Assembly (NCBI GenBank): GCA_030648205.1
Contig: JAUSIH010000046.1
Span: 67,147-131,146, forward strand
Length of the DNA stretch: 64,000 nucleotides
Origin: Dehalococcoidia bacterium
Lineage (GTDB): Bacteria; Chloroflexota; Dehalococcoidia; JAUSIH01
Direction of reading: 5' to 3'
Shown here piece after piece: positions 13,351-36,768 of the stretch; positions within the stretch are counted from its first letter, which is position 1; every line of letters starts with the position of its first letter. A model generated the notes under the pieces. That model ran no database searches. It was not told where the DNA came from and saw only the letters and a list, made by a program, of their open reading frames with translations. The translations under genes were made by a program, and so were the position numbers.

Positions 13351-14055
13351 CTACTGCTTAGCGCGCAGGGAGAAGGGCAGCTCCGCCAGTCTCTTGGCCA
13401 GGCCAAGGCGCTCCAGCGCGGCGTAGGCCCGCGTTGTCCGCCTCGGTCGCAACGACGGGACGTTCTCATACGCCACGAACAGCCCCAGGTCGTCAGGCGT
13501 GTCCACGTCCAGCTCCAGCCGGAAATTGCGCACTGTCCTGACGGGTATGCCGCACGCGGCAGCCTCTTCCTGGTGCTCGCGGAAGCTGGTCGCGCCGAAG
13601 TGCGACCCGATGGCGTCCGGCGGGCGCCGGAGCACGGCGTTGGACCCCGTGCCGTCCCGCGAGGACACCAGCACCAGCCCCGGCTGGCCTGAGTCGGCGG
13701 CCAGCACTGACTGGACATCCTCGGGCCGGACAAGCGGCGCGTCGCCCGGGATCACCAGCATGGCCGGAATGCTCCGCTGAACGCACTGCCGCGCCGCGAA
13801 CTCCACCGCCGCGCTCTCGCCGCTGTTGCGCTCCTCCCGCCAGATCTGCGCCCCGACTGCCTGGGCCAGTGCCTCCGCCTCAGGGTCGCGGGTGATGACG
13901 GCGATGCCGTCGAGCGCCGGCGTGTTCGCCAGCGCGTCCAGCACGTCGTGCAGCATGGCGACGGCCAGTGCATGCCGCTCGTCGGGCGACAGCACGTCGG
14001 ACAGGCGGTTCTTTGCGCCCGCCAGGTCCTTGACCGGCACCACGGCCCAGATCAT
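13351..14055 (-). CDS. cofC: 2-phospho-L-lactate guanylyltransferase (F420 biosynthesis)
   Basis: MIWAVVPVKDLAGAKNRL N-terminus typical of CofC/FbiD; overlaps cofD by 4 nt. Confidence 0.85.
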   Translation of the reverse strand: MIWAVVPVKDLAGAKNRLSDVLSPDERHALAVAMLHDVLDALANTPALDGIAVITRDPEAEALAQAVGAQIWREERNSGESAAVEFAARQCVQRSIPAMLVIPGDAPLVRPEDVQSVLAADSGQPGLVLVSSRDGTGSNAVLRRPPDAIGSHFGATSFREHQEEAAACGIPVRTVRNFRLELDVDTPDDLGLFVAYENVPSLRPRRTTRAYAALERLGLAKRLAELPFSLRAKQ

Positions 14056-14990
14056 GTGTCTCGCGCCTGGGCCAGCAGGCCCAGCACCGCGTCCGCGACG
14101 CGCGCCGCGTCCTCCGGCGTGGGCATCATGGTGTCCGTGATGGCGGTGCGCACGCCCAACTCCGCGATGCGCTCTTCCAGGGCGGCGTCGCGCTGGTCAA
14201 TGACGAACCCGTCCAGGAAGTCGCTGTACAGGTGCGCGACCCCGTACGCCGACGGCTCGACGCCCTGCGCCGTCAGCATGGGCACCGAGGGGCCTTTCAC
14301 CGCCGCGCCCGCCACGATGGGGCTGACTCCCACCACCGGCGCGTCCGTCAGCCGCAGCGCTTCCCGGACGCCCGGCACGCTCAGGATGGGGCCGATGCTG
14401 ATGATCGGGTTGCTGGGGCAGACGACGATTCCCTGCGCGGCAAGGATGGCCTCGATGACGCTGGGGCCGGCGTGCGCGCCCTCGATGCCGTGCACATAGA
14501 CGCGCTGGATGGCGCCCTCGGCGTGGTCGCGGGCCAGGAACTCCTGGAGGTGCATGTCGCCGCGCTCCGTCACCACGCGCGTCTCGACCGGGCTGTCGGT
14601 CATGGGCAGGACGCGGACGGCGAGGCCCCACGCCTCGCACAGCGCGAAGGTGACCTCGGAGAGGGCATGGCCGCGGCCCAGCAGCATGGTCCTGTGGATG
14701 TGCGTGGCGAAGTCGCTGTCGCCGAGAGCGAACCACTTCTGGTGCCCCAGGCGGCCCAGGGCGCGCAGGACGTGAAAGGTGTCGCCCTTCAGTCCGTAGC
14801 CCTTCTCGTCGTCCACGGCGCCCGCCAGGGTGTAGATGATCGTGTCAATGTCGGGAGAGACGTGCAGGCCGTGGAAGACGGCGTCGTCGCCGGTGTTGAC
14901 GATGACCACCAGGTCTTCCGCCTTGACGCGGCGGAGCAGGCCCCGCAGGAACCGGGCGGCGCCCACGCCGCCCGCAAGTGCAACGAGCAT
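14052..14990 (-). CDS. cofD: LPPG:FO 2-phospho-L-lactate transferase
   Basis: CofD/UPF0052 signature (ALAGGVGAARFLRGL...VVIVNTGDDAVFHGLHVSPDIDTIIYTLAG); 312 aa. Confidence 0.9.
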   Translation of the reverse strand: MLVALAGGVGAARFLRGLLRRVKAEDLVVIVNTGDDAVFHGLHVSPDIDTIIYTLAGAVDDEKGYGLKGDTFHVLRALGRLGHQKWFALGDSDFATHIHRTMLLGRGHALSEVTFALCEAWGLAVRVLPMTDSPVETRVVTERGDMHLQEFLARDHAEGAIQRVYVHGIEGAHAGPSVIEAILAAQGIVVCPSNPIISIGPILSVPGVREALRLTDAPVVGVSPIVAGAAVKGPSVPMLTAQGVEPSAYGVAHLYSDFLDGFVIDQRDAALEERIAELGVRTAITDTMMPTPEDAARVADAVLGLLAQARDT

Positions 14991-15005
14991 GGCTTGAGAG
15001 ACTTT

Positions 15006-15476
15006 CTAGCGCCCCGATCCATCGGGGGCCAGGCGGATTTTGCTGTTGTCCCAGGTGCGCACCTTGTCCGGCGTCACCTTCAAGATGACCCAGGGGCCCG
15101 CGTAGTGGTTTCTGATTCGCTCAGGGAGGAGATGTTCGGGGCGCTTCAGTCCGGCGTACTTGCGGTTGTAGGCGGCGTCAAAGCATGCTATCTGCTCAGG
15201 GTCTTCAATGACGCTGCACCGTCCCTGGATGGCCACCCCCTTCAGTTCCTTCCACGCGTCTCCGGCTTCTACGACAACGCAGACGCGCGGTTCCCTCAGG
15301 GCGTTGCGCACTTTGGCGCCGGACTTCAGCGAGTGCATGTGAATGCAGCCGTCCTGGTAGATAAACCACATGGGGACGGAGACGGGGGAGCCGTCCTTAC
15401 GCAGGGTGGTCAGCACAAGGGTCTTCTTCTGCTGAAAGAATGCCTCTATCTCCTGGGAGTCCAGTGTAATCGCCAT
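15006..15476 (-). CDS. PPOX-class (pyridoxamine 5'-phosphate oxidase-like) probable F420-dependent oxidoreductase
   Basis: 156 aa split-barrel FMN/F420-binding family protein adjacent to cofCD. Confidence 0.7.
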   Translation of the reverse strand: MAITLDSQEIEAFFQQKKTLVLTTLRKDGSPVSVPMWFIYQDGCIHMHSLKSGAKVRNALREPRVCVVVEAGDAWKELKGVAIQGRCSVIEDPEQIACFDAAYNRKYAGLKRPEHLLPERIRNHYAGPWVILKVTPDKVRTWDNSKIRLAPDGSGR

Positions 15477-15583
15477 GCGCGCCTCCGAATGGTTTTATAC
15501 GAGAGGGAGTGACGCACGGTTGCCCGTGGTGTCCCGTCTGTTATTATAGATGGGCAGTCCGCCAGCTACAAGGAGGCGTATTC

Positions 15584-16231
15584 ATGCTTGCCTTTCTCGG
15601 AGGGACCGGCCCGGAGGGTCTGGGACTGGCCGCCCGCTTTGCGCTCGCCGGCTACGAGGTCGTTATCGGCTCGCGCTCGGAGGAGCGCGCGCGGGAGGCG
15701 GCAGAGAAGGTGCGGAAGCTCGTCCCGAAAGCCAAGGTGCGCGGCGACGGCAACGAGGGGGCGGCCCGCAAGGGCGACATCGTGTTCATCTGTGTCCCCT
15801 TTGAGGGGCATAAGGCCTTGCTGGAGTCCCTGCGCGGTGAGTTGAAGTACAAGCTGGTCATTGACGTGGCTGTGCCGCTCGCTTTCGAGAAGGGCAAGGG
15901 CGCCTGCGCCGTCCCCGTCCCGGAAGGTTCCGCCGCCGAGCAGGCCCAGGCGCTGCTGCCGCGCGCCCGAGTCATAGGCGCGTTCCACAACCTTTCGGCC
16001 AAAGAGCTGCAAGACGTGGGGCATCCCATCCCGTGCGACGTGCTGGTGTGCGGCGACGACGAGGAGTCAAAGAAACAGGTGATGGCGATGGCGCAGCAGA
16101 TGACGGGCATCCGCGCGGTGGACGCCGGACGTCTGTCTAGCGCGCGGTACGTCGAGAACTTGACCGTCATGCTCCTCTCCATCAACCGGATATACAAGGC
16201 CCAGGCGGGCATCAAGATTGTAGGTATCTAA
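15584..16231 (+). CDS. fno: NADPH-dependent F420 reductase (F420H2:NADP+ oxidoreductase)
   Basis: MLAFLGGTGPEGLGLAARFALAGYEVVIGSRS Rossmann motif typical of Fno/NpdG. Start set at ATG 15584 after an AGGAGG RBS. Confidence 0.85.
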   Translation: MLAFLGGTGPEGLGLAARFALAGYEVVIGSRSEERAREAAEKVRKLVPKAKVRGDGNEGAARKGDIVFICVPFEGHKALLESLRGELKYKLVIDVAVPLAFEKGKGACAVPVPEGSAAEQAQALLPRARVIGAFHNLSAKELQDVGHPIPCDVLVCGDDEESKKQVMAMAQQMTGIRAVDAGRLSSARYVENLTVMLLSINRIYKAQAGIKIVGI

Positions 16232-16390: not shown

Positions 16391-16432
16391 AGATTGTCGA
16401 AACGGAACGCTAACGCGAAAGGGGACCGCTCT

Positions 16433-17644
16433 ATGACTTTGCCTTTGGACGGCGTTCGCCTCATTGACATGACCAAGAACGGGCCCGGTCTGTACGCCGC
16501 CATGCTCCTCGCGGACATGGGCGCCGACGTCATCAAGGTGGAGGAGGTGGGCGAACCCACGGGGCGCCGCGCCGAGCAGGCCAAGGGCGCCGCCTCTCTG
16601 CAGACCACGATGGGCCGCTGTCCCCGGGACTCGGAGTTCTACGCGCCCAACCGGAACAAGCGCAGCATTTGCCTGAACCTCAAGGACCCGGCGGCGCGGG
16701 ACGTCTTCCTTCGTCTGGCGAAGACCAGCGACGTGGTGCTGGAGGGCTTTCGCCCCGGCGTCACCAAGCGGCTGGGCATCGGCTATGAGGCGCTGAGCCA
16801 GCTCAATCCGCGCATCATCTACTGCGCTCTCACGGGCTATGGCCAGGACGGCCCCTACCGTGACCTGGTGGGCCATGACCTGAACTATATCTCCTTCGGG
16901 GGCGCGCTTGCCATTACGGGCAAGCCGGACGAGGCGCCCACGATGCCGGGCTTTCAGTTGGGCGATTTCGGCGGGGGTGGCCTGCACGCCGTCATTGGCA
17001 TTCTGCTGGCCCTCATGGCGCGGGAGCGCACCGGACGGGGCCAGGTGGTGGACATCGCCATGACGGACGGGGTCATCTCGTTCCTGAGCACGATTGTCTC
17101 CGACTACCTGTGGGGCAAGCGTGTCATGGTGCGTGGTGGAGAGAACCTGAACGGCGGCGCGCCCTTCTACAACGTGTACGAGTGCAAGGACGGCAAGTAC
17201 CTGTCTCTGGGCATCGCCGAGCCGTGGTTCTTCGCCAACCTCTGCCGCGAACTGGGCCACGAGGAGTTTATCCCGCTTCAGCATACAACCGGCGAGCCGC
17301 GGGAGAAGATATTCCAGACCTTCCGCCAGATATTCAAGACAAAGACGCGGGACGAATGGTTCAACCAGCTATCGAAGATTGACACATGCGTGGGCAAGGT
17401 CTACACCATGGACGAGCTTGCGTCCGACCCGCACATACGGCATCGAAAGATGCTAACCGAGTTCCATGACCCCAAGCTGGGCGCTGTCCCACAGGTGGGC
17501 GTCGGCATCAAGCTGTCGGACACGCCGGGCAGCATCCGCAGCATCGCACCCAAGCAGGGCCAGCACACCGAGGAGGTCCTGCGCAGCCTGAAGTACACGC
17601 CCGAGCAAATAGCGGCAATGCGCCAGGGGGGCGCCGTCAAGTAA
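16433..17644 (+). CDS. CoA-transferase family III protein (CaiB/BaiF-like; formyl-CoA transferase / acyl-CoA racemase type)
   Basis: LDGVRLIDMT...GPDVIKVE N-terminal signature; 403 aa from ATG 16433. Confidence 0.85.
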   Translation: MTLPLDGVRLIDMTKNGPGLYAAMLLADMGADVIKVEEVGEPTGRRAEQAKGAASLQTTMGRCPRDSEFYAPNRNKRSICLNLKDPAARDVFLRLAKTSDVVLEGFRPGVTKRLGIGYEALSQLNPRIIYCALTGYGQDGPYRDLVGHDLNYISFGGALAITGKPDEAPTMPGFQLGDFGGGGLHAVIGILLALMARERTGRGQVVDIAMTDGVISFLSTIVSDYLWGKRVMVRGGENLNGGAPFYNVYECKDGKYLSLGIAEPWFFANLCRELGHEEFIPLQHTTGEPREKIFQTFRQIFKTKTRDEWFNQLSKIDTCVGKVYTMDELASDPHIRHRKMLTEFHDPKLGAVPQVGVGIKLSDTPGSIRSIAPKQGQHTEEVLRSLKYTPEQIAAMRQGGAVK

Positions 17645-17760: not shown

Positions 17761-18849
17761 ATGAAGCAAGTCGCTGACCGGATCAATGTGACCGACCTGG
17801 ACGCAGCCGTTGAGCTGATGTTTGAGAAGCGCTGGACCGACGGCCTGCCAGCCATTCCGCCGACAGAGGCCGCGGTCGGCAGAATGCTGTCCTACATTAA
17901 GCGCTCGCCAGACGAGGTCATCGGCCCCGTGCCGCCGCGGGACGCCCCCGCGACCATCGAGAAGATTGCCATCAACTGCGTCATGGCGGGCTGCAAGCCG
18001 GAGTACATGCCCATCGTTATCGCGGGGCTGGAGGCGATGCTCGCCCCGGAGTTCAATCTGAAAGGCATACAGACGACCACGCATTGCGTGGCGCCCATGA
18101 CCATCGTCAACGGGCCGCAGATCAAGGATCTGGGGTTCCACTACGGGGACGCCGTCTTTGTGGCGGGCGCCCGTCCCAACGGGACAATCGGGCGCGCGCT
18201 GCGGCTCATCCGGTGGAACGTCGGCGGAGCGTACCCCGGCGAGACGGACCGCTCCACGATGGGACACCCGGGCGAGATATGCTTCTGCATCCCGGAGAAC
18301 GAGGATGAAAACCCCTGGGAGCCGCTCCACGTGGAGCAGGGCTTCAAGAAGGAGCAGAACGCCGTCAGCGCGTTCGGGTGCGAGTCGCCGCACCACATCA
18401 TGACCGGCCCCGGCGACGCCCACTGTATCTTGAACAGCCTGTCGGACTCCATGGCCGTGCTGGGCAACAACAACACGCACATAGGCGGGTGGATGCTCGT
18501 CGTCATCGGTCCCCGCGCGGCGGCCCACCTGGTCAAGGGAGGGTTTACATCCAAGAAGCAGGTCAAGGAGTACCTGTTTGAGAAGGCCCGTATCCCGGTA
18601 GCGAAGCTGCGTCGCGGCCCGGGCGTCGGGCGCGACCAGGCCACGGACGCTCCCACCTGGCTGCGCTGGCCCATTGACCCCGAGGACGACGACGCGCGCG
18701 TGCCGGTGGTGCGCCGACCAGAGGATTTCGTTATCATGGTTGCCGGCGGATGGGGCGCCGCCGCCGCCTTCTGCGCCATCTGCCCCGGCTGGGGCTACAT
18801 GGGAGGGCAGCTGGTGACCCGCCTTGTGACGCCGCCGGGCGGCAAATAG
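17761..18849 (+). CDS. Conserved hypothetical protein, cassette 1 large subunit; Cys motifs GCKPEY / FGCE / CPGWG
   Basis: 362 aa; about 45% identical over its length to the 19591-20658 product (shared EKRWTDGLP, N.VM.GC[KR]PEY, FGCE[SA]PH, [IV]CPGWG). No family assigned. Confidence 0.6.
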   Translation: MKQVADRINVTDLDAAVELMFEKRWTDGLPAIPPTEAAVGRMLSYIKRSPDEVIGPVPPRDAPATIEKIAINCVMAGCKPEYMPIVIAGLEAMLAPEFNLKGIQTTTHCVAPMTIVNGPQIKDLGFHYGDAVFVAGARPNGTIGRALRLIRWNVGGAYPGETDRSTMGHPGEICFCIPENEDENPWEPLHVEQGFKKEQNAVSAFGCESPHHIMTGPGDAHCILNSLSDSMAVLGNNNTHIGGWMLVVIGPRAAAHLVKGGFTSKKQVKEYLFEKARIPVAKLRRGPGVGRDQATDAPTWLRWPIDPEDDDARVPVVRRPEDFVIMVAGGWGAAAAFCAICPGWGYMGGQLVTRLVTPPGGK

Positions 18850-18903
18850 CGCGACCCGCGAACATACCAAGCGATTTACCGTCACACCTGTAAGGAGGGC
18901 ACT

Positions 18904-19476
18904 ATGAGCACTGGGGCAACGTCCAAGGGGATGGTCCTGCTGGACCCGGTAGGCTATGTCCCGGAGGAGGCGGCCAAGAAGCTGACCACCCGCCTGTCGG
19001 ACCTCACCAACAAGAAAGTGGGGTTTGTCTTTGACGGTCATTACATGGCCGAGCACTTCTGGCCGGCCATGGAAGAGGACCTGGTGAAACGGCTTCACCT
19101 GGCGGGCAAGGTCTCTCGCATCAAGCCCAACGTGGGCGCGCCCGCGCCGCAGGCGATGGTGGACGAGGTGGCCTCGCAGGTGGACATCGCCGTCACCGGG
19201 ATGGCGGCCTGAGGGAGCTGCACCAGTGGCGCCGTGCGCGACGCTGTAGCCATGGAGAGGAAGGGCATTCCCGCCGTCGTGATTGCTCACGACAGGTTCG
19301 AGAAGGCGGCCAGGGCCCAGGCGCGAATGCTGGGCATGCCCGACCTGCCCGTGATCGTCGTTCCGCAGCCCCAGTCCTGGACGACGAAGGAAGAAGAGGT
19401 CAAGAACGCCGCCGACGCCGTGGTGAAGATCCAGGCCGCGCTGCAGGCGCGGCCATCAGCTCAGCCGGCCCGTTAG
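18904..19476 (+). CDS. Putative UGSC-motif selenoprotein (in-frame TGA at 19210-19212 read as Sec); 190 aa
   Basis: The 102-codon ORF ending in TGA continues in the same frame for 87 more codons. Local context ...DIAVTGMAA-U-GSCTSGAVRDAVAMERKGIPAV.. is conserved in the paralog at 20714-21286. Small hairpin 8 nt downstream of the TGA. selB present at 32235. Strong RBS AAGGAGGG. Confidence 0.7.
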
Positions 19477-19590
19477 ACGTTGCCCGGCGGCGCGTCCCGC
19501 AAGCCCGTCGTGGTCTGACAGGTGGGCGGTAGCGCGTCTCAGTTCCGTGTCCCCGGGCGTCTGGCCCAGGGGGAGAAAAGAGGACAGGTT

Positions 19591-20658
19591 ATGGCCTTGG
19601 ACATGAAAGCCGCCCGACTTGACGTGGGCGACTACTTCGAGTGGCTGGAGATGGCCTTCGAGAAGCGCTGGACGGACGGCCTGCCCGTGGTCCCGCCCAC
19701 TCCGGAGCGCGTCCAGGCGTTCATAGACTATGTGGGACGCGACCCCTTGGATGTCGTGGGTGAGGTGCCGCCCAAGTACGGCATCGCTACCATCGAGAAG
19801 CTGGCCGTGAACGCGGTGATGGGCGGGTGCCGCCCTGAATACTTTCCCGTGGTCATCGCCGCCATTGAGGCCATGCTGGAGCCGCAGTTCAACCTGAACG
19901 GCGTCCAGACCACCACCCACAATAACGAGCCGCTCGCCATCATCAGCGGGCCCATCGTCAAGCAGATAGGATTGAACGCGCACACGCGCGCTTTTGGCTC
20001 CGGTTACCGGGCCAACGGGACCATCGGCCGGGCCATCAAGCTGGTCCAGTGGAACCTGGGAGGCAGCTATCCAGAGGAGCCGGACAAGTCCTGCTTCGCC
20101 CATCCCGGTCAGTGGACCTACGTTCTGGCGGAAAACCAGGACGCCAACCCGTGGGAGCCGCTCCACGTGACCCGTGGCTTCCCCGCGGAATCAAGCTGCG
20201 TTACGGTCTTCGGCTGCGAGGCGCCGCACAGCGTGTTCAGCTACGGCACAGCCGTCCAGGTGCTCAACGGCATCGGGCATGCCATGGCGACTCCCGCGAA
20301 CAACAACGTCCAGCTCATGGGGGAGATACTCGTCGTCCTCAATCCGTTCAACGCGGCCGCGGTGGCGGGAGAGGGCTGGAGCAAGCAAGACGCCAAGGTC
20401 TATCTATGGCAGCACGCGCGGGTGTCCCGGCGCATCCTTGATGAGTGCTCGTTCCACTGGGACTACGCCAAGCACTACTGGCCCAAGTGGATAAGCCTGG
20501 ACAACCCCAACGAGATGATCCCCCTTACTGAGCGGCCGGAGGACATTCATGTGGTTGTGGCCGGCGGGGACAAGAAGTTCTGCATGGTCTGCCCCGGCTG
20601 GGGCAAGATAGGCGGCCTGGCGGCGACCAAGGAGATCAAGCTGCCGCGCAAGAAATAG
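19591..20658 (+). CDS. Conserved hypothetical protein, cassette 2 large subunit (paralog of 17761-18849)
   Basis: 355 aa with the same conserved motifs; start ATG 19591 after GAGAAAAGAGGA. Confidence 0.6.
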   Translation: MALDMKAARLDVGDYFEWLEMAFEKRWTDGLPVVPPTPERVQAFIDYVGRDPLDVVGEVPPKYGIATIEKLAVNAVMGGCRPEYFPVVIAAIEAMLEPQFNLNGVQTTTHNNEPLAIISGPIVKQIGLNAHTRAFGSGYRANGTIGRAIKLVQWNLGGSYPEEPDKSCFAHPGQWTYVLAENQDANPWEPLHVTRGFPAESSCVTVFGCEAPHSVFSYGTAVQVLNGIGHAMATPANNNVQLMGEILVVLNPFNAAAVAGEGWSKQDAKVYLWQHARVSRRILDECSFHWDYAKHYWPKWISLDNPNEMIPLTERPEDIHVVVAGGDKKFCMVCPGWGKIGGLAATKEIKLPRKK

Positions 20659-20713
20659 GACGGACGCCGCGTTAGGCTATGGTCAACACAGACAACGCAT
20701 AAGGGAGGCGGCA

Positions 20714-21286
20714 ATGGCGACAAAAACAGCTCAGATGACGGTGCTTGATCCGGTGGGTATCACCCGCGCCGAGATGGAGAAGCGGACGGTGACGCGCCGG
20801 CTGGACGACCTGCGCGGCAAGACCATCGGCTTTGTTGACGACGGGTTTTCCGGCGCGGACTATTTCATCAAAGGCGTTCAGTCCCTCGTCGAGCAGCGCT
20901 TTCCCGGCGTCAAGACTCACTACTGGCTCAAGCCCATGATGTCGAGGCCCGCTCCGCCTCAGCTCATCGAGGAGGTGGCGCGCTCGTGCGACGCGGTAGT
21001 GGTCGGCATCTGCGCCTGAGGGTCCTGCACGTCGGGCAGTGTGCACGACACGGTGGCGCTGGAGAAGAAGGGCATACCCGCGGTGGCCGTCTCTTATACG
21101 ACGTTTGATGGCGCGGCCCGCACCCAGGCCAAGCTTATGGGCCTGCCGGACATGAAGCTCGCCGTGATTCCTTTTCCCACGCCCGTGGACCCTGAGGCGG
21201 TGAAGAAGGAGCGCGTGAACCAGCTATTCGAGATGGTGGTCAAACACCTGACGGTGGACACCGCTCCCAAAATGCCTGCGCGGTAG
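20714..21286 (+). CDS. Putative UGSC-motif selenoprotein (in-frame TGA at 21017-21019 read as Sec); 190 aa
   Basis: ...AVVVGICA-U-GSCTSGSVHDTVALEKKGIPAV.. carries the same A-U-G-S-C-T-S-G context as the paralog, with the TGA at the equivalent position. Downstream hairpin tgcac-N10-gtgca lies 7 nt after the TGA. Confidence 0.7.
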
Positions 21287-21315
21287 AGCCGCCTCGCGCC
21301 CTCAGGGGACAATAC

Positions 21316-21350
21316 AAAGCCCCTGGCCGTGGCCAGGGGCTTTGCCTTTG
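21316..21350. terminator. Bidirectional intrinsic terminator between convergent genes
   Basis: Perfect 13-bp stem aaagcccctggcc/ggccaggggcttt with a 3-nt loop, A-rich upstream and gcctttg downstream. Sits between the selenoprotein 2 stop (21286) and the permease stop (21363). Confidence 0.55.
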
Positions 21351-21362
21351 CTGGAACGATGT

Positions 21363-22286
21363 TCAGGTGGAGCCTTGGGAGCCTTTGAGTCGCGGGTCCA
21401 GGACATCCCGCAGGGCGTCGCCCAGCATGCTGAAGCCGAAGACGGTCAGGCTGAGGGCGATGCCCGGGAAAAGGGCTATCCACGGGGCCTGCTCCATCAG
21501 CTCGCGGCCCTTGCCGCTGATCATCCGGCCCCAGGACGGGTCGGGCGGCGGCACGCCAAAGCCCAGGAAGCTCAGTGAGGACTCGGCCAGGATGGCCTGT
21601 GCCCACGTCAGGCTGGCGATGACGATGAGGGGCGCGAAGGTGTTGGGCAGGAGGTGGTGCACCATGATGCGCATGCCGGAGCTGCCGATGGCCCGGGCGG
21701 CGTCTATGTAGGCGTTCTCCTTCAGGCTCAGGACCGCCGCGCGCACGACGCGGGCGTTCTTCACGCCCAGGACAAAGCCCAGGGCGATGAACAGGTTCTC
21801 CATGCTGCTGCCGAACATCATCATCAGCGTCAGCATCAGGATGAGGAAGGGGAACGCCATGATGGCGTCAACGATGCGCTGGGTCAGGGAGTCGAACGTG
21901 CCGCCCAAGTAGCCGCTGAGGATGCCGACGGCTGAGGCGATGATGGTGTTGATGACAACCGTGCCCAGGGCCACATACAGCGAGACGCGGGCGCCGAAAA
22001 GCACGCGGCTGAGTACGTCGCGGCCCTGCTCGTCGGCCCCGAACGGGTGCGCCGTTTCGGGCGGAAACAGACGCCAGTCGGCGCGCACCTGAATGGGGTC
22101 GTAGGGGGTCAGGATAGGCGCGAGGACAGCGACGAGGATGAGGAAGACGACGATGATGCCGCCGATGGCGCCGAGCGGTTTGTTCCGGATGAAGGACATG
22201 GTCCACCGCCACGAGCGTACCGTCGCCGACGGCACGGGCCGCCGCATCACCAGGACGTCTCGGGACGTTACGCCGCTTTGCTCCAT
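21363..22286 (-). CDS. ABC transporter permease (DppC/OppC family)
   Basis: N-terminal TM segment plus PFGADEQGRDVLSRVLFGARVSL and the EAA-loop region. Start may instead be an internal Met (MSFIRNK). Confidence 0.85.
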   Translation of the reverse strand: MEQSGVTSRDVLVMRRPVPSATVRSWRWTMSFIRNKPLGAIGGIIVVFLILVAVLAPILTPYDPIQVRADWRLFPPETAHPFGADEQGRDVLSRVLFGARVSLYVALGTVVINTIIASAVGILSGYLGGTFDSLTQRIVDAIMAFPFLILMLTLMMMFGSSMENLFIALGFVLGVKNARVVRAAVLSLKENAYIDAARAIGSSGMRIMVHHLLPNTFAPLIVIASLTWAQAILAESSLSFLGFGVPPPDPSWGRMISGKGRELMEQAPWIALFPGIALSLTVFGFSMLGDALRDVLDPRLKGSQGST

Positions 22287-30898: not shown

Positions 30899-32164
30899 AT
30901 GGGAGTAGTGGTGAGGGCAACGACTTCCGCGCAAGCAGCAGCCCGCCAGCAGGCGGGGGAGACTCCGCAAGGCGGAGCCGAGGGCGTGGCCCTCTACGTC
31001 CATGTCCCCTTCTGCGCTACCAAGTGCCGCTACTGCGACTTCAACGCCTACGCCCGGATGGAGCGGCTCATCCCGGCTTTCGTGGAGGCCCTCCTGCGGG
31101 AATTGGAGGCGTGGAGCGGCATCCTGGGGCCAGTCCGCGTTCCCACCATTTTCTTTGGTGGCGGCACGCCGTCCCTGCTGCCGTCCGGGGACGTGGCCCG
31201 ATTCCTGGACGCGGCGCGTCGCGTCTTCAGCCTGGACCCCGCGGCTGAGGTCAGCCTGGAGGCCAACCCGGACGACGTCACGGAAGCCAGGCTGCGTCAA
31301 CTCCGGGAGTCCGGGGTGAACCGGCTCAGCATGGGCGTCCAGAGCTTTGACGACGGCCTGCTGCGGTCCCTTGACCGGCGTCACACCGCAGCCGAGGCGG
31401 CGGAAGCCTTTCAGATGGCGCGGGCTGCTGGCTTCGACAACATCAACCTGGACCTGATATATGGCCTGTGCGGCCAGACGCTGGCCCAGTGGGAGGCGAC
31501 GCTGGAACGCGCGGTGGCCCTGCGCCCGGAGCACCTTTCACTGTACGCTCTGACCATCGAGGAGCACACGCCGCTCTGGGACGACGTGCGCCGGGGCCGC
31601 AGTCCGGAGCCGGACCCGGACCTGGCCGCGGACATGTACGTCATGGCAGAGGACCGCCTGGCCGCCGTGGGATACCGCCACTACGAGATCTCCAACTGGG
31701 TGCTCCCTGGCCGGGCCTGCCGCCACAACCTGGTGTACTGGCGAAACCAACCCTACCTGGGACTGGGGCCCGGCGCCCACTCCCGCATTGGCGCGTATCG
31801 CTTCCATGACGTCCTCTCGCCCGCGGAGTACACGCGGCGCGCCGCCGGGCTTTCGATAGCCGCGGGGCCGCAACCGCTGAGCGCCGAAGTCGTGCGTGGC
31901 CTGCCGACTGTCGCTGGCGTGGACGAAGTGAGCGCGGCCACGGATGCGGCGGACACCCTCATCCTGGGACTGCGTCTGGACGAGGGCGTTGACGCGGGTG
32001 ATGTGGCGCGGCGTTTCCCAGACGCGGAGGTTGGTCGGTGGGACAGCGTCATCCGTGAGATGTGCGCGGCGGGCCTCCTGGAGCGCGAGGGCGGCGTCCT
32101 GCGGCTGACCCGGCGCGGACGGCTGCTGGGCAATGAGGTCTTTCTGCGCTTCCTGCCCGGCTAG
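30899..32164 (+). CDS. hemW: Radical SAM heme chaperone HemW (coproporphyrinogen III oxidase-like)
   Basis: LYVHVPFCATKCRYCDF CxxxCxxC radical-SAM motif and HemN-like C-terminal region. Start uncertain because of an N-terminal extension. Confidence 0.8.
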   Translation: MGVVVRATTSAQAAARQQAGETPQGGAEGVALYVHVPFCATKCRYCDFNAYARMERLIPAFVEALLRELEAWSGILGPVRVPTIFFGGGTPSLLPSGDVARFLDAARRVFSLDPAAEVSLEANPDDVTEARLRQLRESGVNRLSMGVQSFDDGLLRSLDRRHTAAEAAEAFQMARAAGFDNINLDLIYGLCGQTLAQWEATLERAVALRPEHLSLYALTIEEHTPLWDDVRRGRSPEPDPDLAADMYVMAEDRLAAVGYRHYEISNWVLPGRACRHNLVYWRNQPYLGLGPGAHSRIGAYRFHDVLSPAEYTRRAAGLSIAAGPQPLSAEVVRGLPTVAGVDEVSAATDAADTLILGLRLDEGVDAGDVARRFPDAEVGRWDSVIREMCAAGLLEREGGVLRLTRRGRLLGNEVFLRFLPG

Positions 32165-32234
32165 CTTCGCTCCTCCCGTCTCCGCCCATTGCCTCTGCTT
32201 CAATCACTCCGCTATACTCGATGCAGGTGAAGCT

Positions 32235-34094
32235 ATGTATGTCATCGGCACCGCCGGACACGTCGACCACGGCAAGTCCACCCTCGTCAAAGCCCTGACC
32301 GGCATTGACCCCGACCGCCTCCGCGAGGAGAAGGAGCGGGAGATGACCATTGACCTGGGCTTCGCCTGGCTGCTTTTGCCGAGCGGGGCCGAGGTCAGCG
32401 TGGTGGACGTGCCCGGCCATGAGCGCTTCGTGAAGAACATGCTGGCGGGCGTCGGAGGCATTGACCTCGCGCTGCTCATCGTCGCCGCCGACGAGGGAGT
32501 CATGCCCCAGACTCGTGAGCATCTGGCTATCCTGGACCTCTTGCGCGTGAAGCGGGGCATCGTGGTCATCACCAAGAAGGACCTGGTGGACCAGGAGTGG
32601 CTGACTCTGGTCATGTCCGACGTGCGGGAGACGCTCAAGGGGACGGCGCTGGAGGATGCGCCCATGTCCGCCGTTTCGTCGGTGACGGGCGAGGGCATCA
32701 AGGAGCTGACTCAGCTTATTGAGACGGAGCTTCAGGCCACGCCCCGTCGGCGCGACACGGGTCGTCCGCGGCTGCCCATTGACCGGGTGTTCAGCGTCGT
32801 GGGCTTCGGCACCGTGGTCACGGGTACGCTCACCGACGGTCGGCTAACCGTGGGCGAGGAGCTGGAGGTCCTCCCCAAGGGGCTGAAGGCGCGCGTCCGC
32901 GGGCTGCAGTCGCATAAGAAGAAGGTGGACGAGCTGCCGCCGGGCACCCGCGCGGCGGTCAACCTGACGGGCGTGGACGCGGACCAGTTGGCGCGCGGCG
33001 ACGTGCTGACCACGCCGGGTTGGCTGCGTCCCACCGAGGCGGCGGACGTGAAGCTGCGCATCCTGCCCAGCGCCCCCATGGCCGTCGGGCACAACGCCTC
33101 GGTCATTCTCTACATTGGCACGTCGGAGGTGCCGGCCCGGGTCCGCCTGCTGGACGCGGATGAGCTGAAGCAGGGCGAGACCTCGTGGGCGCAGGTGCAC
33201 ATGGAGAAGCCCATCGTCGCGGTCAAGGGCGACTACTTCATCATCCGCAACTCGGCGGGCACTCTCGGCGGCGGCGAGATCGTGGACCCGCACGCGCGGC
33301 GCCACCGGCGGCGCCAGCAGAGCCTCCTGGACCGGCTCACCGTGATGGAGCAGGGATCGCCGGAGGAGATAGTGCTGAAAGCGATGGAGGCGGCGGAAGG
33401 CTCCGAGGCCCGCGGCCTGGCAAGCCGCGCGAACATGGCGTGGGCGGACATCCAGGGTGTTCTCCAGACCCTTGCGGAGAGCAAGCGGGCCGTCGCGCTG
33501 GCGGAGCGAGTGAGCCAGAACACGCTGGTCTATTCAGCGCAAGGTTGGAAGTCCCTCCAGGAGAAAGCGCGACAGGTGCTGGAGCAGTACCACAGGCAGT
33601 ACCCGCTGCGCCGGGGCGCGTCCAAGGAGGAGCTGCGCAGCCGTCTGAATGTGACGGCCTCCGCCTTCGTGTCCATCCTGCGGCGCCTCCAGGCCGAGGG
33701 CGCGCTTGTGGAGGAAGGCGCCACCGTACATTTGCCCGCGCACCATGTCCGGCTCGCGCCGGAGCAGCAGGCCGCCGCCGACCGCTATCTGCGCGCCCTG
33801 ATCGAGAAGCCGTACTCGCCCTTCGGCGACGCGGCGATTGACCAGGACCTCTTGAGCGTGCTCATTGACCAGCGGAAGGTCGTCCGGTGCAGCGAGGACG
33901 TGGTGTTCGCCGCCGCGGCCTACGACGACATGGCGCGCCAGGTGGTGGAGCGCATCAAGCAGCAGGGCAAGGTCACGGTGGGCGAGATGCGGGACATGTT
34001 CAGCACGAGCCGCAAGTATGCGCTGGCGCTGGCCGAGTATCTGGACCAGCAGCACGTCACGCGCAGGGTGGGGGATGAGCGCGTCCTGCGGTAA
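32235..34094 (+). CDS. selB: Selenocysteine-specific translation elongation factor SelB
   Basis: MYVIGTAGHVDHGKSTLVKALTG G-domain, EF-Tu-like domains II/III, and a C-terminal winged-helix extension (...KYALALAEYLDQQHVTRRVGDERVLR); 620 aa from ATG 32235. Confidence 0.9.
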   Translation: MYVIGTAGHVDHGKSTLVKALTGIDPDRLREEKEREMTIDLGFAWLLLPSGAEVSVVDVPGHERFVKNMLAGVGGIDLALLIVAADEGVMPQTREHLAILDLLRVKRGIVVITKKDLVDQEWLTLVMSDVRETLKGTALEDAPMSAVSSVTGEGIKELTQLIETELQATPRRRDTGRPRLPIDRVFSVVGFGTVVTGTLTDGRLTVGEELEVLPKGLKARVRGLQSHKKKVDELPPGTRAAVNLTGVDADQLARGDVLTTPGWLRPTEAADVKLRILPSAPMAVGHNASVILYIGTSEVPARVRLLDADELKQGETSWAQVHMEKPIVAVKGDYFIIRNSAGTLGGGEIVDPHARRHRRRQQSLLDRLTVMEQGSPEEIVLKAMEAAEGSEARGLASRANMAWADIQGVLQTLAESKRAVALAERVSQNTLVYSAQGWKSLQEKARQVLEQYHRQYPLRRGASKEELRSRLNVTASAFVSILRRLQAEGALVEEGATVHLPAHHVRLAPEQQAAADRYLRALIEKPYSPFGDAAIDQDLLSVLIDQRKVVRCSEDVVFAAAAYDDMARQVVERIKQQGKVTVGEMRDMFSTSRKYALALAEYLDQQHVTRRVGDERVLR

Positions 34095-34120: not shown

Positions 34121-34280
34121 GTTCCCTAGTCCATGTCATACCGGCGGAAGCCGGTATCCAGAGAAGCACCGGGGAACGCTGGATTCCGGCTTTCGCCGGA
34201 AAGACGGTAAGTGACCAGGGGCGTTTCCTTGAACAATTTCTCATGCATGAAACAGTATGCGTACTTCGGGGACAGGACAC
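34121..34280. repeat. Copy 2 (inverted) of the roughly 155-bp structured repeat; partner at 16233-16390
   Basis: Reverse complement aligns with copy 1 at about 90% identity. Fills the convergent gap between the selB stop (34094) and the pyrE stop (34280). Confidence 0.8.
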
Positions 34281-34969
34281 TAGGCCGGGGAGTCGCCGGG
34301 CCGCTTCTCGGCGGCGGCCTCCGCCCTGTGGGTCTCCATGTAGTCCAGGCTTTGCCGGTACTGTTCCTCGGTTATAAGCCCTTCGGCCATGTAGAAGTTG
34401 AGCATGACCTTGAGGCTGAGGAGCCGCAGGACGCCGTACCCGTGGAGCTTCAAACGCTCGATGCCCCCCTGGTCGCGGTCCACCAGCACGACGGCGTTGC
34501 GGACCCGCAGGCCGGCGGCCTCCAGGGTGCGGGTGGTCTCCAGAAGGCTTCCGCCGGTGGTCATCAGGTCGTCCACCACCAGGACGCGCTGGCCCTGCTG
34601 GAACAGCCCCTCGATGCGTGGCGCGCCGTTCTTCTGGTGGTCCGGACGGACGTACATCATAGGGACCTGCGCGTGAAGGGACAAGGCCGTGGCCAGGTGC
34701 AGCCCGCCGACGGGGACGCCGGCGACAAGCTGAAAATCAGCGCACTCAGGGCGCGCCATGAGCTGCTTGGCTCTGATGTCCTCCAGCATGATGCGGGCGA
34801 CTCGTCGGAGGACGTTTGGCTTGCTGATGAGCACACGGGGGTTGATATACACGGGCGAGTGGCGGGTCGTCCGGCCCAGGGTGAAGTCGCCGAACTGCAC
34901 GCCGCCAAGGTCGAAGAGCTCTTTGGCGATCCACAAGTTACCTGGGGGGAGAGACTTAGGAGAGGACAT
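34280..34969 (-). CDS. pyrE: Orotate phosphoribosyltransferase
   Basis: PRPP-binding motif VLVVDDLMTTGGS; 229 aa. Confidence 0.9.
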   Translation of the reverse strand: MSSPKSLPPGNLWIAKELFDLGGVQFGDFTLGRTTRHSPVYINPRVLISKPNVLRRVARIMLEDIRAKQLMARPECADFQLVAGVPVGGLHLATALSLHAQVPMMYVRPDHQKNGAPRIEGLFQQGQRVLVVDDLMTTGGSLLETTRTLEAAGLRVRNAVVLVDRDQGGIERLKLHGYGVLRLLSLKVMLNFYMAEGLITEEQYRQSLDYMETHRAEAAAEKRPGDSPA

Positions 34970-35155
34970 ATTTACTCTCTTGGTGCGAAAATCGCCACAT
35001 TGTGTATCATTCTAGCAGAGACGGGGAATGCCCAGCAAGGCGAGGCCGCGGGTATGCAAGGCCATGTCGCCCTTGTTGCGGGCGCTTCGTCCGCGCTGGT
35101 ACAATCGTGCTCTGCGTTCAGACGGGCAGGTGTGCGAGACCAAGGAGGGAGGGTC

Positions 35156-35929
35156 ATGCCGGTTGAGATAATTGCCAGCGACGCCAGCATCCCGGGCGAG
35201 GGCGGCAAGACGATGGCGGCCCACGTGGCGCGTCCCAAGGCCACCGGGAAGTACCCCGTGGTCGTGGTCATCATCGAGGCCTTCGGCCTGAACCGCCATA
35301 TTGAAGATGTGGCGGAGCGCTTCGCTCGCGAGGGCTACGTGAGCATTGCGCCGGACTTCTACTATCGGGAGGGCCACAAGGCGGCTGCGGCCTACGCCGA
35401 CCTCGTCAGCGCGCGCCGATTGATGAGCTCGATAGTGGACAGCAAGTACGCGGAGGACATGCGGCGCGTCCTGGACTTCTTGAGGGAGCAGGACTATGCG
35501 TTGGTGAGCAGGTTGGGCACCGTGGGCTTCTGCATGGGCGGGCGCCTGTCGTACCTTGCCGCTTGCCAGGCGCCGGGCGACGTGAAGGCCTGCGTGGTGT
35601 TCTATGGCGGGCGCATCGTCACGCGGGACCGCACCGCCAGCGCGCCTGTCCCGCCCGTGGAGATGACATCCAACCTCGAGGCGCCTGTCCTCGGGTTCTT
35701 CGGCGACCTGGACGCGGGCATTCCCTTGGACGATATCAAGGAGTTGGAGGCCACGCTCAAACGGCTTGGGAAATCCGGCGAGTTCCACGTGTACAAGGGG
35801 GCGCCTCACGGCTTCTTCTGCGACGAGCGCGGCACCTTCCGTCCGGAGGCGGCGAAGGACGCATGGCAACGCACGCTCGTTTTCTTCCAGAGGCACTTGA
35901 AGGCGGGAACGCCCACGGGGAGCCGTTGA
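35156..35929 (+). CDS. Dienelactone hydrolase family protein
   Basis: VVVVIIEAFGLNRHIEDVAERFAREGYVSIAPDFY and a GFCMGG nucleophile elbow. ATG 35156 after AAGGAGGGA. The long upstream ORF in the six-frame track is antisense to pyrE and is treated as an artefact. Confidence 0.8.
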   Translation: MPVEIIASDASIPGEGGKTMAAHVARPKATGKYPVVVVIIEAFGLNRHIEDVAERFAREGYVSIAPDFYYREGHKAAAAYADLVSARRLMSSIVDSKYAEDMRRVLDFLREQDYALVSRLGTVGFCMGGRLSYLAACQAPGDVKACVVFYGGRIVTRDRTASAPVPPVEMTSNLEAPVLGFFGDLDAGIPLDDIKELEATLKRLGKSGEFHVYKGAPHGFFCDERGTFRPEAAKDAWQRTLVFFQRHLKAGTPTGSR

Positions 35930-36768
35930 TGATGAAGGACGCGCGCGGGCAATCGGCCCGCCGTCCCTCAGGCGACGTGAAGGCGGCCCGAGGCCGCGAA
36001 CCTGCCGTGGCTGCCGTACCGGCGCTGCATGTTTTTGGCGTAACGGATATGCCGGAAGTCCGGTCTGGCTCCGACCTGGCCGCCTTGATCATCGAGGCGC
36101 TGGCCCGCCAGAAGACTCCGCTTCTATCCGGCGACGTGGTGGTCGTGACGCAGAAAGTGGTCTCAAAGGCGGAAGGCCAGTTGGTTAGACTTGGCGGCGT
36201 GCGTCCGTCCGCGTTTGCTCGCTATCTGGCTGGCTGGAGCGGCAAAGACGCCCGCCGAGTGGAGGTCGTGCTCCGCGAGACGCGGCGTATCGTGAAGATG
36301 GACCAGGGGCTGCTGGTCTGTGAGACGCACCACGGCCTCGTCTGCGCTGACGCGGGGGTGGACGAGTCCAACGTGCCGGGGCCCTCCGTCGTCACCCTCC
36401 TGCCCAAGGACCCGGACGCCTCCGCCCGTCGGCTGCGCGAGACCCTGGAGCGCCACTATGGCGTGCCCCTGGCAGTCGTCATCTCGGACACCTTCGGTCG
36501 GCCGTGGCGCAAGGGCATCACGAACGTGGCGATCGGCGCGAGCGGCATTCAGACGATGCGGGACTACAAGGGGGAAAAAGACCCCTCCGGCTACGTGCTG
36601 AAGGGCACGGTCATCGCCGTGGCCGACGAGCTTGCGGCTTCGGCTGAGCTGGTTATGGGGAAGCTGCAGGGTGTGCCTGTCGCCGTGGTGCGCGGGTACG
36701 ATTACGAGCGTGCGGACGGGGGCGCCAGGGAGATGGTCTGGGAGCCGGATCACGACCTTTTCAGATAG
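35929..36768 (+). CDS. cofE: Coenzyme F420-0:L-glutamate ligase (gamma-glutamyl ligase)
   Basis: CofE motifs LHVFGVTDMPEVRSGSDLAALI, VVVVTQKVVSKAEG, VCADAGVDESN. The ATGATG start overlaps the upstream stop; an internal GTG start is also possible. Confidence 0.78.
   Translation: MMKDARGQSARRPSGDVKAARGREPAVAAVPALHVFGVTDMPEVRSGSDLAALIIEALARQKTPLLSGDVVVVTQKVVSKAEGQLVRLGGVRPSAFARYLAGWSGKDARRVEVVLRETRRIVKMDQGLLVCETHHGLVCADAGVDESNVPGPSVVTLLPKDPDASARRLRETLERHYGVPLAVVISDTFGRPWRKGITNVAIGASGIQTMRDYKGEKDPSGYVLKGTVIAVADELAASAELVMGKLQGVPVAVVRGYDYERADGGAREMVWEPDHDLFR

Follow-up and report, generated by a model that had tools for sequence, protein, structure and literature searches.

Two UGSC genes with in-frame TGA codons

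The window analysed here is a 64,000-nucleotide (nt) stretch of contig JAUSIH010000046.1 from a Dehalococcoidia bacterium, and our subject is a pair of UGSC-family genes in it that are each interrupted by an in-frame TGA codon followed, inside the coding sequence (CDS), by a hairpin that probably acts as a selenocysteine insertion sequence (SECIS). Four genes occupy positions 17761-21286 of the plus strand and form two tandem pairs, each with a partner gene followed by a UGSC gene; the region is made up of two tandem copies of a two-gene module that encodes an uncharacterised partner of about 360 amino acids (aa) and a UGSC-family selenoprotein. UGSC copy 1 (18904..19476, plus strand) spans 190 codons with the TGA at 19210..19212 as codon 103, and UGSC copy 2 (20714..21286, plus strand) likewise spans 190 codons with the TGA at 21017..21019 as codon 102. 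With both TGAs read as selenocysteine (Sec, U), the surrounding residues are A-U-G-S-C-T-S-G-A-V-R-D in copy 1 and A-U-G-S-C-T-S-G-S-V-H-D in copy 2, which represent types C and B, respectively, of the classification given below. The two products are 40% identical and have the motif A-U-G-S-C-T-S-G in common at a conserved position. An AAGGAGG ribosome-binding site is located 8 nt upstream of the ATG of copy 1.

Both products match the Pfam family PF24696 ("UGSC family") in alignments that span the TGA, with an E-value of 3e-43 and 148.3 bits over residues 12-181 for copy 1, and an E-value of 2.1e-42 and 145.6 bits from about residue 10 to 181 for copy 2 (cut-off 25 bits). The equivalog cut-off of 125 bits for NCBIfam NF041046, "UGSC family (seleno)protein", was reached neither by copy 1 (98.2 bits) nor by copy 2 (104.3 bits), and the scores indicate that both are divergent subtypes of the family. 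The UGSC-containing protein was noted already in 2007 (PMC1976440) and has been published as a selenoprotein family of unknown function (Zhang & Gladyshev 2008, PMC2398784). It is among the most abundant selenoprotein families in the Global Ocean Sampling (GOS) data, where 255 Sec forms were counted versus 21 cysteine (Cys) forms (PMC2398784).

A search for protein homologues with a Cys-substituted UGSC protein gave no match, probably because gene callers split the UGSC genes at the TGA, and the UGSC protein has no sequence relative in PDB. Scans of contigs identified 103 related loci with 107 UGSC instances, which together with the two window copies gave a set of 109. The Sec column in this set contained TGA in 106 instances, TGC in 2 and TAA in 1. 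Judged from sequence, the two TGAs would thus be the Sec codons of two genes in an already known selenoprotein family.

The Ala codon at position -1 relative to the TGA (19207-19209 and 21014-21016 in the window, and its counterparts in the homologues) was GCC or GCT only, never GCG or GCA, in 39 type C sequences, in which Ala codons elsewhere nearby use all four synonyms; the restriction could reflect an influence of codon context on how the UGA is decoded. The Sec region of copy 1 (residues 53-129) showed a weak match to the D-proline reductase selenoprotein PrdB (TIGR04483, E = 8e-4), which is likewise a UxxC selenoprotein, and a distant kinship between the two is possible. Sec forms with a perfect type A hairpin were found on the Acidovorax sp. 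T1 plasmid p2-T1 (L112, 1929-2219) and on pTAV4 of Paracoccus versutus (L105), and such copies from cultured bacteria sit on plasmids or chromids. The annotated CDS in the Acidovorax record ends at the Sec TGA, resulting in a mis-annotated 96-aa hypothetical protein.

Position and form of the conserved hairpins

An ordinary bacterial SECIS hairpin is situated inside the CDS after each UGA, as expected for standard Sec decoding in a known family. With the U of UGA numbered as nt 1, the hairpin of copy 1 covers nt 16-36 (19225..19245, plus strand; register C) and has the loop C-G-U-G-C at 19233-19237. Its pairs, given by the last two digits of 192xx, are A25-U45, G26-C44, U27-G43 and G28-C42, followed after a G29.A41 mismatch by C30-G40, G31-C39 and C32-G38. 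The hairpin of copy 2 covers nt 15-33 (21031..21049, plus strand; register A) and has the loop A-G-U-G-U at 21038-21042. Here the pairs, as 210xx, are G31-C49, U32-A48, C33-G47 and G34-C46, then a G35.A45 mismatch, then G36-C44 and C37-G43, and the outer loop nucleotides A38 and U42 can pair too. The conserved element thus has seven stem pairs in copy 1 and six in copy 2, interrupted by a single purine-purine mismatch and capped by a 5-nt loop N-G-U-N-N, in which the GU is placed at nt 25-26 in copy 1 and at nt 23-24 in copy 2.

The homologues fall into three types. Type A, UGSCTSW(S/G/C)(I/L/V)HD, comes from Dehalococcoidia, Binatia and Rokubacteria, has no copy in the window, and usually forms a perfect 7-bp hairpin, GUCGUGG-(NGUNU)-CCACGAC, at nt 15-33. 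Type B, UGSCTSGSVHD, to which copy 2 belongs, uses the same register in the form GUCG-G-GC (AGUGU) GC-A-CGAC; its hairpin differs from that of type A by three substitutions, two of which are compensatory at pair 21-27. Type C, UGSCTSG(A/S)VRD, which includes copy 1, forms at nt 16-36 four pairs, a G.A mismatch and three pairs around the loop CGUG(C/A). The loop contained GU in all 36 type A/B sequences, as N-G-U-N-U in 34 and G-U-G-A-U in 2, and was C-G-U-G-C/A in 43 of 43 type C sequences.

Covariation and synonymous codon usage

Register A was paired in 91.3% of the cells in an alignment of 36 type A/B sequences, with four pairs changed on both sides (15-33, 18-30, 19-29 and 21-27) and a covariation score of 0.186 versus 0.064 in shuffled alignments. 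For register C, the corresponding values in 41 type C sequences were 93.0% of cells paired, three pairs changed on both sides and a covariation of 0.221 versus 0.071. Neither score was reached by any of 500 shuffles, and controls in which the register was slid gave at most 54% pairing. One of the exchanges in register C, from G22-C30 to U22-A30, occurs in 16 sequences, and its 3' change is a synonymous replacement of an Arg codon; another, from C17-G35 to G17-C35, represents a switch of the Ser codon from UCC to AGY together with a Gly to Ala replacement, and window copy 1 is in this latter state. From the alignments alone, RNAalifold recovered the same helices as registers A and C and added A22-U26 for type A/B.

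The synonymous sites of the hairpin codons were nearly invariant. Among 42 distinct type C sequences, synonymous entropy was zero at codons +6, +7, +8 and +10, that is, at four of the six hairpin codons (+5 to +10), which were GGC (42/42), GCC (26/26), GTG (42/42) and GAC (42/42). Ser +5 was nearly fixed (TCC in 39/42, 0.44 bits), and only Arg +9 varied appreciably (1.41 bits; CGC 25, CGA 12, AGA 4, CGT 1), its third base covarying with nt 22. Flanking four-fold degenerate codons (Gly, Val, Ala, Thr) in type C used three or four synonyms each, with entropies of 1.4-2.0 bits, and the frozen pattern was also seen in low-GC marine type C sequences whose flanking codons end in A or T. Types A and B behaved alike, with zero entropy at +6 to +10 and 0.59 bits at +5 in type B. 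The AGT codon, which is the rarest Ser codon here (11/413), is used in both window hairpins.

Sec and Cys forms

A tblastn search of plasmids gave 21 further homologues, twelve of which were fetched; nine had Cys at the Sec column, two had TGA, and in one the motif was not found. The G23-U24 dinucleotide was present in 34 of 36 Sec forms versus 0 of 10 Cys forms, the latter comprising the nine plasmid homologues and locus L021 of the genome scan (Fisher 1.6e-8, not corrected for relatedness). The hairpin was wholly lost in L021, with 3 of 7 pairs and the loop ACCAU. Our expectation that Cys forms would be without the stem was only partly borne out, since the Ser-Trp...His-Asp codons force four of the seven pairs. 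The feature that discriminates Sec from Cys forms is the loop GU together with the third-position pairs.

Two metagenomic homologues deviate at the Sec column. In L082 the Sec TGA is replaced by TAA (position 534), and L084 has TGC (position 978) and keeps the full type C hairpin; being of type C, where GU is at nt 25-26, L084 stands outside the ten Cys forms counted above. Either could reflect a sequencing error, a pseudogene or a recent change from Sec to Cys, and L084 looks like a recent conversion.

The stems of the initial annotation

The initial annotation of this DNA had placed a SECIS-like hairpin after each TGA, GCAC-N10-GUGC at 19220..19237 and UGCAC-N10-GUGCA at 21026..21045 (both plus strand). 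The letters and coordinates are exact: GCAC at 19220-19223 and GTGC at 19234-19237 enclose CAGTGGCGCC in copy 1, TGCAC at 21026-21030 and GTGCA at 21041-21045 enclose GTCGGGCAGT in copy 2, and the stems begin 6-7 nt past the in-frame TGA in each copy. The proposal was right in kind but chose the wrong register, as the particular hairpins drawn are not the conserved ones, which overlap them, are mutually exclusive with them and begin, in each copy, 5 nt closer to the 3' end. The stems were also thought to be extensible, which is true of copy 2 (hairpin nt 6-33, -11.3 kcal/mol) and not of copy 1.

RNA folding and covariation, which had been suggested as checks, did not bear these stems out. Segments of 41 and 61 nt, starting at the TGA or 10 nt upstream of each TGA, showed no gain in folding over dinucleotide shuffles (z between -0.68 and +1.34), and the isolated stems are weak (-3.9 and -5.0 kcal/mol). 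Covariation in 77 homologues was zero, with a score equal to the shuffled mean. The stem was paired in 97.6% of the cells of the type C alignment and in 74.4% of those of the type A/B alignment, in both cases with no pair changed on both sides, and the version extended to nt 6-33 was paired in 70-83% of cells in the two alignments, again without double changes and with covariation at the shuffled mean. Of the five pairs of the drawn stem, two (12-27 and 14-25) are disrupted in 22-23 of 36 type A/B sequences (alignment A5), which are the Trp-containing sequences of type A plus two outliers of type B; five type C homologues lose pair 11-28 through an AGA codon for Arg.

The caveat made at the outset, that the likeness of the two stems is in part forced by the conserved GSCTSG codons, was correct and could be given a magnitude. 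When the peptides GSCTSGAVRD... and GSCTSGSVHD... were recoded synonymously 20,000 times with the window's own codon usage, a stem at least as good resulted in 44% of cases for copy 1 and in 48% for copy 2. The stems are therefore not above chance once the peptide is fixed, because Cys-Thr (UGC-AC) is complementary to Val-Arg/His (GUG-C) by virtue of the codons. By the same approach, all seven pairs of the conserved hairpin appeared in 1.2% of recodings of copy 1, and at least six pairs together with G23U24 in 0.11% of recodings of copy 2.

Bacterial SECIS (bSECIS) elements have been modelled with a loop of 3-9 nt, a stem of 4-16 bp, a UGA-to-loop distance of 16-37 nt and a minimum free energy (MFE) of at most -7.5 kcal/mol, with a G in the first two loop positions in the pattern N1-G-(G/U)-N-N2 (PMC13188914). 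The initially drawn hairpins, with 10-nt loops, 11 nt from UGA to loop and a G within the first two loop positions in copy 2 only, fail these constraints because of loop size, spacing and loop G (PMC13188914). E. coli requires a spacer of 11 nt between UGA and hairpin (PMC8659212). We judged neither of the two drawn hairpins to be the functional element; the stems, which use spacer nt 10-14, are a by-product of the Cys-Thr...Val codons. The frozen stretch at nt 16-33 corresponds to the conserved hairpin and not to the 5' arm of these stems. The first ~11 nt past the A-site codon lie within the mRNA channel of the ribosome, so a stem using nt 6-14 would not be expected to persist at decoding. 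For type B alone, covariation does not separate register A from the extended form of the drawn fold, and the case for register A in copy 2 draws on homology with type A, on outlying sequences (L100 and L038/39, for example) and on the rule for spacing.

Partner genes and genomic neighbourhood

The selB gene for the Sec-specific elongation factor, the protein to which SECIS hairpins bind, is located 11 kb downstream of the UGSC genes (32133..34094, plus strand) and was identified by NCBIfam TIGR00475 (350.9 bits, cut-off 242) and by matches to the Pfam domains SelB-wing_2, SelB-wing_3 and Beta-barrel_SelB. It is flanked by a hemW-like gene (30899-32164) and a dienelactone-hydrolase gene (34211-35929), not by selA or selD.

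Partner gene 1 (17761..18849, plus strand; 362 aa) lies directly upstream of UGSC copy 1 and has no match in Pfam or NCBIfam, and partner gene 2 (19591..20658, plus strand; 355 aa), 44% identical in product to the former, lies directly upstream of UGSC copy 2. A partner homologue adjoins the UGSC gene in 86 of the 103 loci. The partner gene, which is conserved and without a family or a clear structural relative, is the more unusual item of the neighbourhood. A single gene in which partner and UGSC parts are fused was found on a plasmid of Variovorax boronicumulans (L106, 1995-3632), where it is annotated as a 545-aa CDS in the Cys form, and three 467-aa products (P0091, P0101 and P0103) consist of the partner and the N-terminal part of UGSC and end where the TGA would fall. 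These fusions support a functional link between the two proteins. The four-gene block is closed, 3' of UGSC copy 2, by a terminator-like GC hairpin with a T-rich tail (21320..21349, plus strand). Rfam gave just two matches, a partial one to sX6, which covers only this hairpin and was dismissed as terminator-like, and one to asR3, which was dismissed as due to chance.

Directly upstream of the module, the window contains a gene for a family III CoA-transferase (16394-17644, plus strand). Genes for CoA transferase, CoA ester lyase or malonyl-CoA functions are placed beside the module on haloarchaeal and Neorhizobium plasmids, and trxB or trxA in Roseovarius and Arthrobacter (loci L110, L111, L113, L109 and L114 for all of these together); these neighbours hint at a thiol- or selenol-dependent step in acyl-CoA metabolism. 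The window also encodes CofC, CofD and CofE for coenzyme F420 biosynthesis and an F420-dependent NADP oxidoreductase (13351-16231 and 35563-36768). Its GC content is 63-67%, and the best matches of the partner gene are from Chloroflexi; taken with the F420 genes, these features point to a Chloroflexota genome.

Evaluation of alternative folds and readings

We consider it quite probable that UGA is decoded as Sec in both UGSC mRNAs with the help of SelB and of the hairpins in register C (copy 1) and register A (copy 2). The data behind this reading concern membership in the family, where the hairpins lie and how they are conserved, their covariation, the suppressed synonymous change and the presence of selB; SelB binding and Sec insertion at these two UGAs would follow by analogy with known systems. 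Several observations weigh against it. The bare conserved hairpins have energies of -7.0 and -7.2 kcal/mol, marginally weaker than the -7.5 threshold of the bSECIS model, and their pair probabilities are ~0.00-0.01 in the free 60-nt RNA ensemble, in which neither family register is favoured; when enforced in 60 nt with flanking pairs they reach -13.0 (copy 1) and -16.1 kcal/mol (copy 2). The 41- and 61-nt segments around the TGAs are, as noted above, no stabler than shuffles. Scanning the window for TGA triplets with a 7-bp, NGU-looped hairpin downstream gave 8 matches compared to 8.0 +/- 2.1 in shuffled sequences, and since the pattern is equally common in shuffles it is not evidence in itself. 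Rfam searches detected no SECIS family, neither over the whole window at the gathering score nor in 18800-21400 at E <= 10, which lowers the claim of membership in curated models and not the functional reading. The independent compensatory events are perhaps about 7-8, not dozens, and several covarying pairs are tied to amino acid changes in sequences that are phylogenetically related. Part of the stem is retained in Cys forms. Finally, a full tRNA scan of the 64-kb window found only tRNA-Arg and no tRNA-Sec, and selA and selD were not found among the ~30 open reading frames (ORFs) of the window scanned for protein families.

The stability data also bring in other folds. For copy 1, the MFE structure is a hairpin at 19226-19242 (register M), GU-G-GCGC (CGU) GCGC-G-AC with the outer stem GCUGCA/UGUAGC stacked below it, which presents the same G25-U26 in a 3-nt loop, satisfies the loop and spacing rules of the bSECIS model, has a pair probability of 0.73 and is 4.3 kcal/mol better than register C (-17.3 versus -13.0 kcal/mol). 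That copy 1 forms register M and not register C is nevertheless rather unlikely in our view, and as a family structure it was rejected, because only 57% of the cells are paired across the type C homologues. Pairs 17-33 and 18-32 occur essentially in the window sequence only, 20-30 and 22-28 break in Ser variants, and most homologues lack the outer stem; sliding the 3' partners by +2, which amounts to register C, raises the pairing to 82.5% and the covariation to 0.220. For copy 2, the extended form of the initially drawn hairpin matches register A in stability (-16.4 versus -16.1 kcal/mol when enforced in 60 nt), and the loop of this extended form, GGGCA, begins with GG. Together with the finding that the drawn stems can form in both copies and are so widely paired in type C, this is what speaks for the hairpins at nt 10/11-28/29, extensible to nt 6-33 in copy 2, as the functional SECIS. 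We hold this to be very improbable, given the zero covariation in both alignments, the high proportion of recodings that yield such a stem, the two pairs broken in so many type A/B sequences, and the loss of pair 11-28 without consequence in five type C sequences. Their 10-nt loop and 11-14 nt spacing are outside the bSECIS model (PMC13188914), the 5' arm falls in the 11-nt spacer, and the frozen synonymous sites in what would be their own loop (nt 15-24) are left unexplained.

These mutually exclusive folds, namely the Cys-Thr/Val stem, which either copy can form and which extends over nt 6-33 in copy 2, and additionally register M in copy 1, leave room for the improbable idea that the one selB in view reads SECIS paralogues in two registers and that the competing folds tune the efficiency of Sec insertion differently per copy, as a built-in structural switch and not as an idle consequence of the codons. 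The opposite extreme is that there is no recoding at all, the TGAs being real stops of split or decaying genes and the conservation a product of protein constraint and codon bias. Gene callers do truncate such genes, as in the Acidovorax plasmid, one homologue (L082) has TAA, and the hairpins are thermodynamically unexceptional. We give this next to no credence, since PF24696 aligns across the stop, TGA is kept in more than 100 diverse homologues and replaced by Cys in others, the synonymous sites are frozen over the hairpin only, low-GC marine sequences included, selB is present, and the family is a published selenoprotein family (PMC2398784).

Under the SECIS reading with registers A and C, the C-terminal winged-helix domain of SelB would bind the loop GU and the upper stem, following the E. 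coli and Moorella paradigm. SelB domain 4 has been reported to be still attached to the SECIS when the UGA occupies the A site (PMC5311926). By this model, SelB would likewise stay bound here with the UGA in the ribosomal A site, when the 11-12 nt spacer would be in the mRNA channel, and would compete with release factor 2 in delivering Sec-tRNASec.

Biologically the finding is ordinary, adding two members with standard bacterial SECIS elements to a selenoprotein family that was already known. The analysis settles the annotation as full-length 190-aa UGSC selenoproteins, not four short ORFs, and provides exact SECIS coordinates, other than those that inspection suggests. It also illustrates a general trap, in that a short stem past a UGA in a GC-rich CDS can be wholly forced by conserved codons, and only comparative data, here covariation, frozen synonymous sites and the contrast between Sec and Cys forms, tell a real element from such a by-product. 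Since no Rfam family matched either of the two elements, the family-wide description, which comprises an N-G-U-N-N loop in two registers, could serve as the starting point of a covariance model for SECIS elements of the UGSC type.

Comparison with known systems

The window copies resemble the UGSC family as described (PF24696, NF041046) in the U-G-S-C motif, the length of about 190 aa and the predominance of Sec over Cys. The GOS paper reported a fusion or association of UGSC with an unknown domain, "Unknown_1" (PMC2398784), whereas in the window this association appears as a separate adjoining gene. The window copies are moreover Gly subtypes (UGSCTSG...), unlike the Trp subtype (UGSCTSW...) of Dehalococcoidia, Binatia and Rokubacteria genomes.

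Compared with the consensus bacterial SECIS (bSECISearch; PMC13188914), both hairpins lie in the ORF directly 3' of an in-frame UGA that is aligned with Sec or Cys of homologues, and their loop and stem sizes are within the ranges of the model. The loops have the required G (CGUGC in copy 1, AGUGU in copy 2), the UGA-to-loop distance is 20 nt in copy 1 and 18 nt in copy 2, and the structure is conserved in orthologues with compensatory changes. The N1-N2 pair of the model can form in copy 2 between A22 and U26. The difference is that the window hairpins pass -7.5 kcal/mol only when flanking pairs are counted.

The SECIS of E. coli fdhF is a 17-nt hairpin at nt 15-31, 11 nt from the UGA, with G23 and U24 in the loop (PMC8659212). 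The window hairpins are like it in being located in the CDS immediately 3' of the UGA, and copy 2 and all type A sequences likewise start at nt 15 after an 11-nt spacer and present G23-U24 in a small apical loop. They differ from fdhF in having a purine-purine mismatch (G19.A29 in copy 2, G20.A32 in copy 1) instead of a bulged U17, in their stems of 6-7 bp with a 5-nt loop and no conserved lower stem including the UGA, and, for copy 1 and type C, in a hairpin that is shifted 1-2 nt downstream and places the GU at nt 25-26.

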